Below are positions 1 to 4,109 of a DNA stretch of 4,109 nt, one piece after another. A program made the position numbers and the translations under genes. Position 1 is the stretch's first letter. Each line of letters opens with the position of its first letter. This stretch comes from a virus (taxonomy: Duplodnaviria; Heunggongvirae; Uroviricota; Caudoviricetes): IMG/VR virus record IMGVR_UViG_2534681941_000034; one strand, written 5' to 3'. The notes under the pieces are model-generated. The model had not been told where the DNA came from, did not search any database, and saw nothing but the letters and a program-made list of their open reading frames with translations.

Positions 1-417
1 CATATTGTGCCGCGACTGGCCGGGGCCGGAAAGGGTGGACTGCAGATTGTGCTGGGGGCGGCAGCCATCGTGGGGTCGTTCTTCACTGCCGGGGCATCAA
101 TGGCGTTATGGGGTTCAGCCCTGGCAGCCGGTGGTTTTTCTGCCACCACGATGCTGTTTTCACTTGGAGCCAGCATGATTCTGGGCGGTGTGGCCCAGAT
201 GCTGGCCCCGAAGGCAAAAACACCGGATTACCGCGCAACGGATAACGGCAGACAGAACACGTACTTTTCCTCGCTGGATAACATGATTGCCCAGGGGAAC
301 CCGATGCCGGTGCCTTACGGGGAAATGCTGGTTGGCTCCCGCCGTATATCCCAGGACATCAGCACCCGTGATGAAGGTGGGGGCGGAACGGTCGTGGTTG
401 TCGGGCGACAGGGATAA
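1..417 (+). CDS. Tail assembly protein I (lambda gpI family), C-terminal part; the 5' end lies upstream of the window. The track ORF begins at an internal GTG at 7, but the frame is open from base 1.
   Basis: Frame 1 is open from base 1 to the TAA at 415-417. The translation (glycine/alanine-rich hydrophobic stretch, then ...YFSSLDNMIAQGNPMPVPYGEMLVGSRRISQDIS...) matches my recollection of the gpI C-terminus. It sits immediately upstream of a J homologue, as in lambda (K-I-J order). Confidence 0.8.
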   Translation, partial: HIVPRLAGAGKGGLQIVLGAAAIVGSFFTAGASMALWGSALAAGGFSATTMLFSLGASMILGGVAQMLAPKAKTPDYRATDNGRQNTYFSSLDNMIAQGNPMPVPYGEMLVGSRRISQDISTRDEGGGGTVVVVGRQG

Positions 418-420
418 AAC

Positions 421-456
421 ATAAAAAAATCCCGCAGTGATCGCGGAGCTGCGGGG
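421..456 (-). terminator. Rho-independent terminator, functional on the minus strand only
   Basis: Perfect 7-bp GC-rich inverted repeat cccgcag (431-437) / ctgcggg (449-455) with an 11-nt loop. On the minus strand the stem is followed directly by AUUUUUUUAU (complement of 421-430). There is no T-run after the stem on the + strand. Confidence 0.55.
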
Positions 457-520
457 ACAGACAAATGAAGATCAATGTTAAGGAGTTGTTTTTGTTACTC
501 GGGCAAAAAAACACTAACGC
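422..520 (-). ncRNA. Candidate small regulatory RNA (about 100 nt), transcribed antisense to the tail operon from the promoter at 527-554 and ending at the terminator at 421-456
   Basis: The predicted transcript has no AUG and no plausible ORF. It has a 5' imperfect hairpin, a C/A-rich single-stranded tract (AACAAAAACAAC), an A/U-rich internal region, and a 3' GC stem plus U-tail, which is the usual layout of Hfq-dependent sRNAs. The start site is inferred from promoter geometry (about 7 nt after the -10), so the 5' end is accurate only to a few nt. Confidence 0.45.
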
Positions 521-526
521 AGCGAA

Positions 527-554
527 ATTATAAGCGCCACAGTCAGTGTGTGAA
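527..554 (-). promoter_or_regulatory. Sigma70-type promoter on the minus strand: -35 TTCACA (549-554), 16-bp spacer, -10 TATAAT (527-532)
   Basis: Read on the minus strand: ttcaca, 16 nt, tataat. The -10 is a perfect consensus and the -35 matches TTGACA at 5 of 6 positions. An A/T-rich stretch lies just upstream (complement of 555-580), resembling an UP element. Confidence 0.5.
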
Positions 555-626
555 AATGTGAAGATATTCAGAATTTTTATGCCATTACCGGTTTTAACCA
601 ACAGGATTATCGGTGGGCATGAAAGA

Positions 627-662
627 AAACCCCGGTATCTGCTGATACCGGGGTTTCTCTTT
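627..662. terminator. Bidirectional Rho-independent terminator
   Basis: Perfect 10-bp inverted repeat ccccggtatc (630-639) / gataccgggg (644-653) with a 4-nt loop (tgct). It is flanked by an A-rich run upstream (gaaagaaaa, 621-629) and a T-rich run downstream (tttctcttt, 654-662), so it should terminate on either strand. Confidence 0.7.
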
Positions 663-745
663 AGCATGGCAGAAATGTGTTTCATGCTTTTCGGGCGAAG
701 GATATCCGACTTCTGTACGGAATGGCAAGTGGCGGTTAATTTATT

Positions 746-755
746 CAGGGGAAGG
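746..755 (+). promoter_or_regulatory. Ribosome-binding site for the J gene
   Basis: Purine-rich aggggaagg lies 4-10 nt upstream of the ATG at 760-762. There is no in-frame start further upstream, because frame 1 has a TGA at 643-645. Confidence 0.4.
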
Positions 756-759
756 CTGT

Positions 760-1509
760 ATGGGAAAAGGTGGCGGTAAGGCACACACGCCTCGTGAGGC
801 GAAGGATAATCTCAAATCCACGCAGATGATGAGTGTGATTGATGCGATTGGTGAGGGACCGATAGAAGGTCCGGTGAAGGGACTGCAGAGTATTCTGGTG
901 AACAAAACCCCACTGACGGACACGGACGGCAATCCCGTGATACACGGTGTGACCGCGGTCTGGCGTGCCGGGGAGCAGGAGCAGACACCACCGGAAGGCT
1001 TTGAGTCCTCCGGAGCTGAAACCGGACTGGGCGTGGAAGTGACGAAGGCAAAACCGGTGACGCGCACCATTACGTCCGCGAACATTGACCGCCTGCGGGT
1101 CACCTTCGGGGTGCAGTCACTGTTGGAGACCACCTCAAAGGGCGACCGTAATCACTCTTCTGTCCGACTGCTGATTCAGTTGCAGCGTAACGGTAACTGG
1201 GTGACGGAAAAGGATGTCACCATTAACGGCAAGACCACCTCGCAGTTCCTGGCGTCGGTGATTCTGGATAATCTGCCGCCCCGGCCCTTTAACATCCGGA
1301 TGGGTCAGGGAGACGGCGGACAGCACCACGGACCAGCTGCAGAACAGAACGCTGTGGTCGTCATACACCGAAATCATCGATGTGAAACAGTGCTACCCGA
1401 ACACGGCCATTGTGGGGCTGCAGGTGGATGCGGAGCAGTTTGGCGGTCAGCAGATGACGGTGAACTACCATATCCGCGGTCGCATCATCCAGGTACCGTC
1501 AAACTATGA
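760..1509 (+). CDS. J fragment 1: N-terminal part of the host specificity protein J homologue. Genuine similarity ends near 1302; the remaining 3' tail of this ORF is out-of-frame read-through.
   Basis: ATG at 760 with an upstream purine-rich RBS. The first 181 residues resemble the lambda gpJ N-terminus closely. After NIRM the translation becomes low-complexity G/H/A-rich sequence with no resemblance to gpJ, while frame 2 picks up the similarity. Confidence 0.6.
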
Positions 1510-3706
1510 CCCGGAAAAACGCACGTACAGCGGCATCTGGGACGGCAGCCTGAAACCGGCATACAGCAACAACCCTGCCTGGTGCCTGTGGGACATGCTG
1601 ACCCACCCGCGCCACGGAATGGGAAAACGCCTGGGGGCGGCGGATGTGGACAAGTGGGCGCTGTATGCCATTGCGCAGTACTGCGACCAGACGGTCCCGG
1701 ATGGTTTCGGGGGCACTGAGCCGCGGATGACTTTCAATGCGTACCTGTCACAACAGCGTAAGGCGTGGGACGTTCTCAGTGATTTCTGCTCGGCGATGCG
1801 CTGTATGCCGGTATGGAACGGGCAGACGCTGACGTTTGTGCAGGACCGTCCGTCAGATGTGGTGTGGCCCTACACCAGCAGTGATGTGGTGGTGGATGAT
1901 AACGGCGTGGGGTTTCGCTACAGCTTCAGCGCCCTGAAGGACCGCCACACGGCGGTGGAGGTGAATTACACCGACCCGCAGAACGGCTGGCAGACCTCCA
2001 CGGAACTGGTGGAAGACCCGGAAGCCATACTGCGCTACGGGCGCAACCTGCTGAAGATGGATGCGTTCGGCTGTACCAGTCGCGGTCAGGCCCACCGTGC
2101 CGGGCTGTGGGTGATAAAGACCGGACTGCTGGAAACGCAGACGGTGGATTTCACGCTCGGGTCACAGGGGCTGCGTCACACACCCGGTGACATTATTGAA
2201 ATCTGTGATAACGACTATGCCGGGACCATGACCGGCGGACGTGTCCTGTCCATCGATGCCGCCAGCCGCACCCTGACACTGGACCGTGAGGTGACCCTGC
2301 CGGAGACCGGTGCCGCCACGGTGAACCTGATTAACGGCAGCGGTAAGCCGGTGAGCGTGGCCATCACTGCACACCCCGCGCCGGACCGGATACAGGTCAG
2401 CACCCTGCCGGATGGCGTGGAGACATACGGTGTGTGGGGGCTCTCCCTGCCGTCACTGCGTCGTCGCCTGTTCCGCTGTGTCTCCATCCGGGAAAACACG
2501 GACGGCACCTTTGCCATCACGGCAGTGCAGCACGTACCGGAAAAAGAAGCCATCGTGGATAACGGGGCGCACTTTGACGGCGACCAGAGCGGCACCCTGA
2601 ACAGCGTCATCCCTCCGGCAGTGCAGCACCTGACGGTGGAGGTGAGTGCAGCTGACAGCCAGTATCTGGCGCAGGCGAAATGGGACACGCCGCGGGTGGT
2701 GAAGGGCGTGCGCTTCAGTCTGCGCCTGACCAGTGGAAGCGGTCAGGACAGCCGTCTGGTGACCACCGCCATCACTGCGGATACAGAGCATCGTTTCAGT
2801 GGTCTGCCGCTCGGGGAATACACCCTGACAGTCAGGGCAATTAACAGTTATGGCCAGCAGGGGGAACCGGCCATCACCACCTTCCGGATTAACGCGCCAG
2901 CAAAACCCGCCACCATTGAACTGACGCCGGGGTATTTTCAGATAACGGCGGTACCGGTGCTGGCGGTGTATGACCCGACGGTGCAGTTTGAGTTCTGGTT
3001 TTCGGAAAAACGCATCACGAACACGGCACAGGTGGAAAAATCTGCCCGTTATCTGGGGAGCGGCAGTCAGTGGACTGTCCAGGGAAGCCGGATTAAGCCG
3101 GGGACGGATTTCTGGTTTTACGTGCGCAGCGTCAACCTGGTGGGGAAATCTGCGTTTGTGGAAGTCAGCGGGCAGCCCAGCAATGATGGTGAAGGGTATC
3201 TGGAATTTTTCCGGGAAAAAATAGGAAAACTGCATCTGGCTCAGGGGCTATGGGAGCTGATAGACAACAGCCAGCTTGCGGATGAGATGGCGGAGATGAA
3301 GACCACCATCACGGAAACCCGCAATGAAATCACACAGACGGTCAGTAAAACGCTGGAGAACCAGAGCGCCACTATACAGCAGATACAGCGCGTGCAGAAG
3401 GACACAAATGATGACCTGGCTGCGCTGTACATGCTGAAGGTTCAAAAAACGAAAGACGGCATTCCCTATGTGGCCGGGATTGGTGCAGGGATTGAGGATA
3501 CTGATGGCCAGCCACTGAGCAACATACTGCTGCTGGCTGACCGTATCGCGATGATAAATCCGGAGAGCGGCAACAGCACGCCGTTATTTGTGGCGCAGGG
3601 GAATCAGCTGTTCATGAACGACGTGTTCCTGAAGCGACTGTTTGCGGTGAGTATCACCTCGTCCGGCAATCCCCCGACGTTTTCCCTGACGCCGGAGGGC
3701 GGCTGA
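1382..3706 (+). CDS. J fragment 2: central part of the host specificity protein J homologue, including two tandem fibronectin type III-like repeats (about 2612-3189) and the conserved [17 protein letters not shown] segment.
   Basis: Frame 2 is open from 1262 to the TGA at 3704-3706, and gpJ-like similarity begins at about 1307, upstream of the first GTG (1382). The 774-aa translation is collinear with the gpJ centre (e.g. [65 protein letters not shown]). Confidence 0.7.
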
Positions 3707-4109
3707 CGGCGAGAAATGCTGATATCAGTGGTAGTGTGAATGCGAATTCCGGGACGCTCAACAACGTCACGATTAACGAGAACTGTCGGGTTCTGGGAAA
3801 ACTGTCCGCGAACCAGATTGAAGGCGATCTCGTTAAAACAGTGGGCAAAGCTTTCCCCCGGGATTCCCGTGCACCGGAGCGGTGGCCATCAGGGACCATT
3901 ACCGTCAGGGTTTATGACGATCAGCCGTTTGACCGGCAGATTGTTATTCCGGCGGTGGCATTCAGCGGCGCTAAACATGAGAGAGAGCATACTGATATTT
4001 ACTCCTCATGCCGTCTGATAGTGCGGAAAAACGGTGCTGAAATTTATAACCGTACCGCGCTGGATAATACGCTGATTTACAGTGGCGTTATTGATATGCC
4101 TGCCGGTCA
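3700..4109 (+). CDS. J fragment 3: start of the C-terminal (receptor-binding) region of the host specificity protein J homologue; partial, running off the window end.
   Basis: Frame 1 is open from 3556 to the window end and is missing from the supplied track only because it has no stop in the window. From 3700 it translates to [54 protein letters not shown]...[18 protein letters not shown]...VIDMPAG, collinear with the lambda gpJ C-terminal region but clearly diverged from it. Confidence 0.7.

Follow-up and report, generated by a model that had tools for sequence, protein, structure and literature searches.

The closest described relative of the element reported here is PasB (pathogenicity-associated sRNA B), a small RNA (sRNA) encoded on the minus strand of prophage PP6 in enteropathogenic Escherichia coli (EPEC) O127:H6 strain E2348/69 (Pearl Mizrahi et al., Sci Adv 2021, PMC8550237). 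Other described prophage sRNAs, AgvB, AsxR, and EcOnc03, are 51-60 nt long, have a common 42-nt 3' region, and occupy the PR' moron site (Tree et al. 2014, PMC4104026). Morons of lambdoid phages also include lom and bor of lambda and stx downstream of PR' (Juhala et al. 2000, cited in PMC4104026). In this study, we analyzed a stretch of 4,109 nucleotides from a Caudoviricetes virus (IMG/VR record IMGVR_UViG_2534681941_000034; the whole stretch is hereafter called the window), in which tail genes I and J are separated by a spacer of 342 bp (418..759, strand-neutral). On its minus strand, antisense to the late tail operon, this spacer encodes PasB, a regulatory sRNA whose dependence on Hfq has been published before. 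A reading of the letters alone (hereafter the original prediction) had described the gap as a moron-like insertion with an RNA-based rather than a protein-based cargo. The results support a moron-like cassette with an RNA cargo, and the predicted RNA corresponds to one validated by RIL-seq (in which interacting RNAs are ligated and sequenced) and northern blotting in EPEC E2348/69 (PMC8550237).

The published extent of PasB is 83 nt (NC_011601, 1466343->1466261; table S6 of PMC8550237), which maps via alignment A1 to positions 423..505 on the minus strand of the window. This alignment, covering window positions 380 to ~580 and the E2348/69 locus, contained a sole difference at position 479, and 82 of the 83 nt of the RNA were identical to the E2348/69 copy (RNA position 27 being A here and C there). 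The variant PasB-2 departs from PasB at the same position 27, and the E2348/69 sequence is not the most frequent variant (Zhu, Shabalina and Storz, bioRxiv 2026, 10.64898/2026.05.13.724894); the variant in the window was the most frequent in the loci sampled here. Additionally, the northern probe used for PasB, AATCCCGCAGTGATCGCGGAGCT (PMC8550237), matched positions 428-450 of the window exactly. In the RefSeq record of E2348/69, PasB is located on the opposite strand between genes for a 'tail assembly protein' (end 1466255) and gpJ (start 1466496), the same antisense I-J location as in the window. Membership in PasB is indicated by this location together with the sequence identity, the probe match, and a terminator with seven U residues.

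The PasB module of the window (418..585, minus strand; alignments A1 and A2) has three components, namely the gene of the sRNA, the promoter, and, upstream of the latter, a conserved block. This promoter is of the sigma-70 type (527..554, minus strand) and matches the consensus at 11 of 12 positions, with TTCACA at 554-549 as the -35 box, a 16-bp spacer, and TATAAT at 532-527 as the -10 box. The original prediction of a consensus promoter in the gap agreed with our analysis, as did that of two terminators, one belonging to PasB and one being a large hairpin at 618-668. The intrinsic terminator of PasB (423..455, minus strand), identified by scanning and folding, has a stem formed by 455-449 and 437-431 (CCCGCAG/CUGCGGG), an 11-nt loop, an A, and U7 at 429-423, in agreement with the value of 7 given for PasB under 'Longest U tract' in table S5 of the RIL-seq study (PMC8550237). 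The RNA's 3' end (423) is 6 nt from the stop codon of gene I. The transcription start site predicted from the -10 box is at ~520, which would give a 98-nt RNA starting with GCGUUA. The interval 506..520 (minus strand) may therefore be a 5' extension of the primary transcript, based on the spacing from TATAAT and on GCGTTA being invariant in 14 of 14 family members.

In E2348/69, PasB was found by RIL-seq and is visible on northern blots as an RNA of ~83 nt, also in non-induced cultures (PMC8550237). Its abundance depends on Hfq, with depletion in a delta-hfq strain (table S2, log2 fold changes of -6.8 and -2.4, wild-type vs delta-hfq), and is higher in static overnight lysogeny broth (LB) than in Dulbecco's modified Eagle medium (DMEM) (PMC8550237). 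The RIL-seq data contained 37 partners, namely 30 coding sequences or 5' untranslated regions (UTRs), 4 3'UTRs or intergenic regions (IGRs), and no sRNA. PasB was the second RNA in 99-100% of the chimeras (fraction as RNA2 of 0.99-1), and its fragments numbered 1,820 in the non-activating and 258 in the activating condition (PMC8550237). Partners in the non-activating condition included a PP9 gene, the napF 5'UTR, map, the nlpD IGR, hflX, and fabR, as well as bfpB, the raiA 5'UTR, ftsZ, espC, caiF, and the tolC 5'UTR (PMC8550237). The probable seed was placed just upstream of the terminator (Zhu et al., bioRxiv 10.64898/2026.05.13.724894).

We are confident that the spacer holds an autonomous PasB transcription unit opposite the late operon, encoding a trans-acting sRNA and representing a moron-type addition. 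A repressed prophage would express PasB in the lysogen from its own leftward promoter, and the RNA would behave as a classical sRNA that base-pairs in trans, with the help of Hfq, with mRNAs of the host and of virulence genes. Pairing would probably occur via the unstructured conserved stretch upstream of the terminator (UCCUU...AAUCUUC). The hairpin at 618-668 would insulate the cassette against transcription from both directions, and Q-antiterminated late transcription is expected to read through both terminators during lytic growth. The cassette as a whole would be a moron-type addition at a junction that measures 60 bp in lambda-type phages.

Several points weigh against this reading. The published 5' end (505) lies 15 nt downstream of the predicted start site at ~520, indicating either that PasB is processed or that one of the two estimates is off; the published end is based on RNA-seq coverage and an approximate northern size (PMC8550237). 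The folding energy of PasB was no better than that of shuffled sequences (z of about -0.8 to -1.0), and RNAalifold on 14 distinct family members gave no covariation support, the terminator stem being invariant. On the side of function, MEME gave no common motif for PasB targets and table S7 has no PasB entry (PMC8550237), and no PasB target has yet been validated by compensatory mutation. Expression, Hfq dependence, and mRNA chimeras belong to the E2348/69 copy, and for the copy in the window they are predicted from the near-identical sequence. In addition, two frameshifts in gene J suggest that this prophage may be decaying, and the direction of the event, a gain here as opposed to a loss in lambda, is one that we infer.

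To the right of the PasB module, the spacer continues with a long-form segment (586..759, plus strand; alignment A2) that contains a hairpin and the leader of J with a Shine-Dalgarno-like GGGGAAGG at 748-755. The hairpin (618..668, both strands) was predicted by folding to be very stable (plus strand, -32.2 kcal/mol with a z of -6.3; minus strand, -28.7 kcal/mol with a z of -6.1), with a G+C-rich core stem of 10 bp (630-639/644-653), a TGCT loop, and A/T runs on both sides. These features suggest a terminator-like element that works in both directions and insulates the PasB promoter and J from each other. Among 5,426 complete E. coli genomes, positions 591-750 occurred at 1,694 places, distributed over 1,446 genomes, and the identity was at least 99% in almost all of them. 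Similarity of the window to spacers of ~240 bp stops at ~580-586 (alignments A1 and A2), and those spacers have another, shorter hairpin and leader to the right of the PasB module. At the E2348/69 locus, the promoter, the terminator with U7, the I-J place, and the orientation equal those of the window; the difference is that its spacer is 240 bp long with a short plus-strand hairpin and T run, whereas that of the window is 342 bp long with a larger, bidirectional hairpin.

The spacer is thus a mosaic of a PasB module (418-~585, ~168 bp) and an independently distributed 174-bp segment (586-759). The nearly identical right-hand segment adjoins PasB modules with a mutual identity of only ~80% (e.g., the window and WCHEC000837), pointing to a recent recombination whose breakpoint falls within or close to the invariant block at 550-585. 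The original prediction, which had taken the extra ~280 bp as a single acquisition, was right that the gap is expanded relative to lambda, but the extra DNA is a two-part mosaic and not one insertion. A hairpin with a T run also stands just upstream of J in the 60-bp spacer of lambda (L002, 746-805) and in spacers of ~240 bp (L001, L006, and L008), and in the stem of the latter a C-G pair is changed to T-A, with G-T as an intermediate, among E2348/69, PhiR12_2, and an Stx2c phage. A terminator-like element before J seems to be a conserved feature.

The comparison of loci revealed a PasB-family module with at least three body types, for which the names type 1, type 2, and type 3 were coined in this analysis. 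The module was present in 147 phage records, with type 2 in Stx2c/Stx1a phages and PhiR5_1 and type 3 in YYZ-2008 and Stx2a WGPS phages; types 2 and 3 occur in many Stx1a, Stx2a, and Stx2c phages. The diverged PasB-like sRNAs, which belong to Stx-converting and other lambdoid phages, have in common with PasB the slot, the orientation, and the upstream block, and differ from it in the RNA bodies, which are ~65-80% identical across types. Alignment of 14 distinct family members showed conservation of the terminator, of UCCUU and AAUCUUC, and of the GCGUUA with which the RNA is predicted to start. The promoter was kept in type-1 and type-2 loci, whereas type 3 has TATCAT and another -35 region. 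The only conserved structure found by RNAalifold was the invariant terminator, and the body of PasB was predicted to be largely unpaired in the 14 members.

PasB-family modules occupy roughly one third of E. coli J loci. A distant BLAST search with positions 418-590 as the query found 5,544 places in 1,813 of the 5,426 complete genomes, with up to 11 copies per genome, and 5' ends of J were detectable at 14,899 places in the same set. A previous bacterial survey of PasB used BLAST with a word size of 28 and reported 1,158 hits (bioRxiv 10.64898/2026.05.13.724894). Because of this word size and the small number of hits compared with our 5,544 module places, the survey probably missed the diverged types. 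In our taxonomic survey, a scan of genome contigs with the J protein gave no confirmed locus, and an exact scan with the upstream block, using one genome per species, yielded only Escherichia albertii and two probably contaminated assemblies. This result is consistent with reports that the Pas sRNAs are confined to Escherichia and Shigella. The two assemblies are Streptomyces flavalbus, with a 3.4-kb contig (L092) whose identity to the window is 95.8% over 2.7 kb and whose G+C content is 0.59, and Asaia platycodi, with a 546-bp contig (L090); both contigs contain this E. coli prophage DNA and most probably represent contamination of those assemblies.

The block upstream of the -35 box (555..585, minus strand) is AT-rich and nearly invariant in every variant and across sRNA types in the comparison of loci, including those with another core promoter. 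Within the block lies TGTGAAGATATTCAGA (557-572), which is one mismatch from the CRP core TGTGA-N6-TCACA. This CRP-like site is the only one in the window, with an expectation of 0.15, and 30 of 200 shuffled sequences also had one, so that it is not significant alone. Its center is at about -44.5 from the predicted start site, which is neither the canonical class I nor the class II position. Candidate roles for the block are those of a CRP site, of an UP element, and of a linker for recombination, and the high level of PasB in static overnight LB and low level in DMEM are compatible with CRP and also with other controls. A tentative proposal, which we hold to be possible though more doubtful than not, is that PasB is one member of an undercounted family of I-J sRNAs, with at least three body types at about one third of E. 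coli J loci, in which the invariant box with its near-consensus CRP half-palindrome (TGTGA-N6-TCAGA) makes the junction a catabolite-controlled cassette slot while the pairing regions diversify, the box perhaps being the crossover point. If true, lambdoid prophages would rewire host mRNAs through a catabolite-controlled slot, and the box might shuffle sRNA bodies against tail modules.

The moron reading is supported because lambda-type gaps measure 60 bp, the G+C content dips in the spacer, the antisense unit is autonomous, and sodC or insertion sequence (IS) elements are found at the same junction in other phages. In lambda, gene I extends to 15444 and J begins at 15505, giving a spacer of 60 bp, and the same gap was present in all four sampled E. 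coli J loci of lambda type (72-74% identity class); the original prediction had given a gap of about 60 bp for lambda, and the lambda record bears this out. The G+C content, proposed there as a check, was 0.38-0.48 in the spacer and 0.55-0.65 in I and J. The locus shows additional DNA separating two genes that are neighbors in related phages, its own predicted promoter and terminator, and a different base composition, and with the alternative cargo at the junction these observations support the moron reading.

Other cargo was found at the same I-J junction. At three IMG/VR loci with a J N-terminus 98% identical to that of the window (L025, 650-1500; L063; and L071), a gap of 851 bp holds a Cu,Zn superoxide dismutase gene (sodC) with its own hairpin. 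These cassettes resemble that of the window in junction and in minus-strand orientation and differ in having a protein cargo and in that the PasB promoter has been replaced, leaving a type-2 PasB-like body and terminator ~90 nt downstream. A PasB-like RNA at the sodC loci could arise only by read-through or from the sodC 3' region. An IS3-family orfA/orfB pair was located in or beside the PasB module of L077 (70-1350), a different insertion severs the PasB promoter in L047 and L090, and a transposase gene replaces J in L098 (Stx2a_WGPS2, 653-956).

The main rival to an acquisition is that the long spacer is ancestral to this tail module, so that lambda-type phages lost the cassette and nothing was acquired here. 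Gap lengths were measured at loci mostly from IMG/VR with a J N-terminus at least 97% identical to that of the window, and among the 76 measurable gaps, all but that of lambda, included for comparison (60 bp), were 235-254, 337-343, or 851 bp. Nearly all close relatives of the J of the window have a PasB-family module, and within this J lineage the cassette is of long standing and widely distributed. The existence of at least three module types whose bodies have diverged to ~70-80% identity indicates long residence. The presence of the spacer in most lambdoid I-J junctions, which the original prediction had named as the sign of an ancestral element, was not observed overall and was seen only within the J lineage of the window. 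Long residence is, however, compatible with an origin by insertion, and the cassette is a self-contained antisense unit with a G+C content below that of its flanks. Moreover, lambda and the ~240-bp spacers share the hairpin-plus-leader arrangement, to which the PasB module looks added on the left, right after the stop codon of I, and unrelated cargo (sodC and IS) sits in the same slot of other phages. We consider the ancestral spacer unlikely.

The cargo itself could be read in other ways, each of which is less probable still. PasB could act mainly in cis, pairing with the I-J part of the late mRNA to alter its processing, its stability, or the translation of J, and so serve phage-directed control. 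By sequence alone, PasB is perfectly complementary to 83-98 nt of the late transcript, and its position directly 3' of the I stop codon is kept in all variants, both in agreement with such a role, but the 37 RIL-seq partners are trans partners that nearly all belong to the core genome (accessory-genome fraction of 0.005-0.02), and no neighboring tail gene was among the partners read in the non-activating sheet. The start of J is also ~250 nt from the paired region, and the late operon is silent in the lysogen while PasB is abundant; a mainly cis-acting role is thus quite improbable. There is hardly any likelihood that PasB is a sponge of the AgvB type, with its CA-rich 5' part AACAAAAACAAC mimicking GcvB targets and titrating GcvB. 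Anti-sRNAs have a precedent in prophages of enterohemorrhagic E. coli (PMC4104026), and a CA-rich stretch does lie at 484-500 on the minus strand, but this stretch is not kept in type-2 loci, the GcvB consensus target CACAACA is absent, and PasB had no sRNA partner in RIL-seq. The sequence of AgvB is unrelated and has nothing in common with positions 423-520, and a scan of the whole window against Rfam, which is said to hold AgvB (RF02702) and AsxR (RF02703), returned no match at E <= 1. Neither the ~42-nt 3' region of AgvB and AsxR (…GTATCTCATGC…TTGCCCGAACCCA(C/T)TCGGGC…) nor their length of 51-60 nt was found in PasB, and the convergent sRNA pairs of that group lie downstream of PR', whereas PasB lies between I and J. 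An AgvB-like anti-sRNA was therefore rejected on unrelated sequence, other location, and the lack of an sRNA partner, and is largely refuted.

An equally implausible reading is that the gap encodes a small protein, from an open reading frame (ORF) of 77 codons (546..779, plus strand) or one of 22 codons (465-533, plus strand). Hypothetical proteins are annotated at the corresponding places in two phages, ASU11 (77-codon ORF with an internal start) and PhiR12_1 (22-codon counterpart). The 77-codon ORF, however, crosses the 10-bp G+C hairpin, overlaps the start of J, and is broken in MS20657 by a 1-bp indel, while the ATG of the 22-codon ORF is ACG in type-2 loci and its type-3 product is wholly different after four residues. 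None of the four gap ORFs, 546..779 (+), 465-533 (+), 359..784 (-), and 594..728 (-), had a match in Pfam or PHROG; protein cargo was rejected since these ORFs are also not conserved. The absence of a convincing protein gene, noted in the original prediction, therefore stands, with the ORFs broken or start-less in relatives. The 22-codon ORF, MKINVKELFLLLGQKNTNAAKL, runs antisense to PasB, and its start, ATGAAGAT, is complementary to AUCUUCAU, which is conserved in the sRNA; the ORF is probably not a gene. The reading that we retain is that of an autonomous, trans-acting PasB unit.

The window covers the tail-tip part of a lambda-like E. coli prophage. The genes flanking the spacer were identified from the ORF list and from Pfam and PHROG matches, confirming that I stops at 417 and J starts at 760, as first read. 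The 3' part of tail assembly gene I (7..417, plus strand; its left end lies off the window) ends with TAA at 415-417 and matched the PHROG tail assembly protein families phrog_4554 (1e-52) and phrog_32 (1e-47), and its RefSeq homologues carry the annotation 'tail assembly protein'. The tail tip or host specificity gene J (760..4109, plus strand; its right end lies off the window) starts with ATG at 760 and matched Pfam FNIII-A_GpJ and the PHROG central tail fiber J. A promoter consensus scan of positions 300-900 gave three promoter-like sites, against 0.6 expected. Compared with an intact homologue (NZ_CP074958, L101), J is broken by two frameshifts, namely +1 at ~1302, where a G is additional (GGATGGGTCAGG vs GGATGGTCAGG), and -1 at ~3700, where an A is absent (GGGC-GGCTG vs GGGCAGGCTG). 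These frameshifts reflect either a decaying prophage or sequencing errors. The top complete RefSeq genome of E. coli was 96.2% identical across the whole window.

The PasB locus is already known from a description published in 2021 and from a 2026 preprint that surveyed where it occurs. In RefSeq genomes, it is unannotated ('none' under the match), and it has no Rfam family; because it is absent from both resources, a reader or an annotation pipeline cannot recognize PasB by name, although the module is present in one third of complete E. coli genomes. The main value of the present analysis is annotation together with modest extensions, and it adds little as a discovery. The refinements concern the I-J junction, which repeatedly serves as a slot for cargo (PasB types, sodC, and IS), and the spacer, which is a two-part mosaic. 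In addition, the diverged PasB-like types appear to outnumber the near-identical copies of earlier counts ~5 times.

Taken together, the locus can be placed beside two groups of described elements. PasB resembles AgvB, AsxR, and EcOnc03 in being a short, Hfq-binding, prophage-encoded RNA with its own promoter in a moron-type slot, and differs from them in its partners, since those RNAs act on sRNAs, whereas the RIL-seq partners of PasB are mRNAs and IGRs only. With the morons of lambdoid phages, the cassette shares the presence of extra DNA between genes that adjoin each other in relatives, a promoter and a terminator of its own, a deviating base composition, and expression from a repressed prophage. 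It differs from them in that the cargo is a non-coding RNA, PasB, whose gene is located within the tail operon and is read in the opposite direction.

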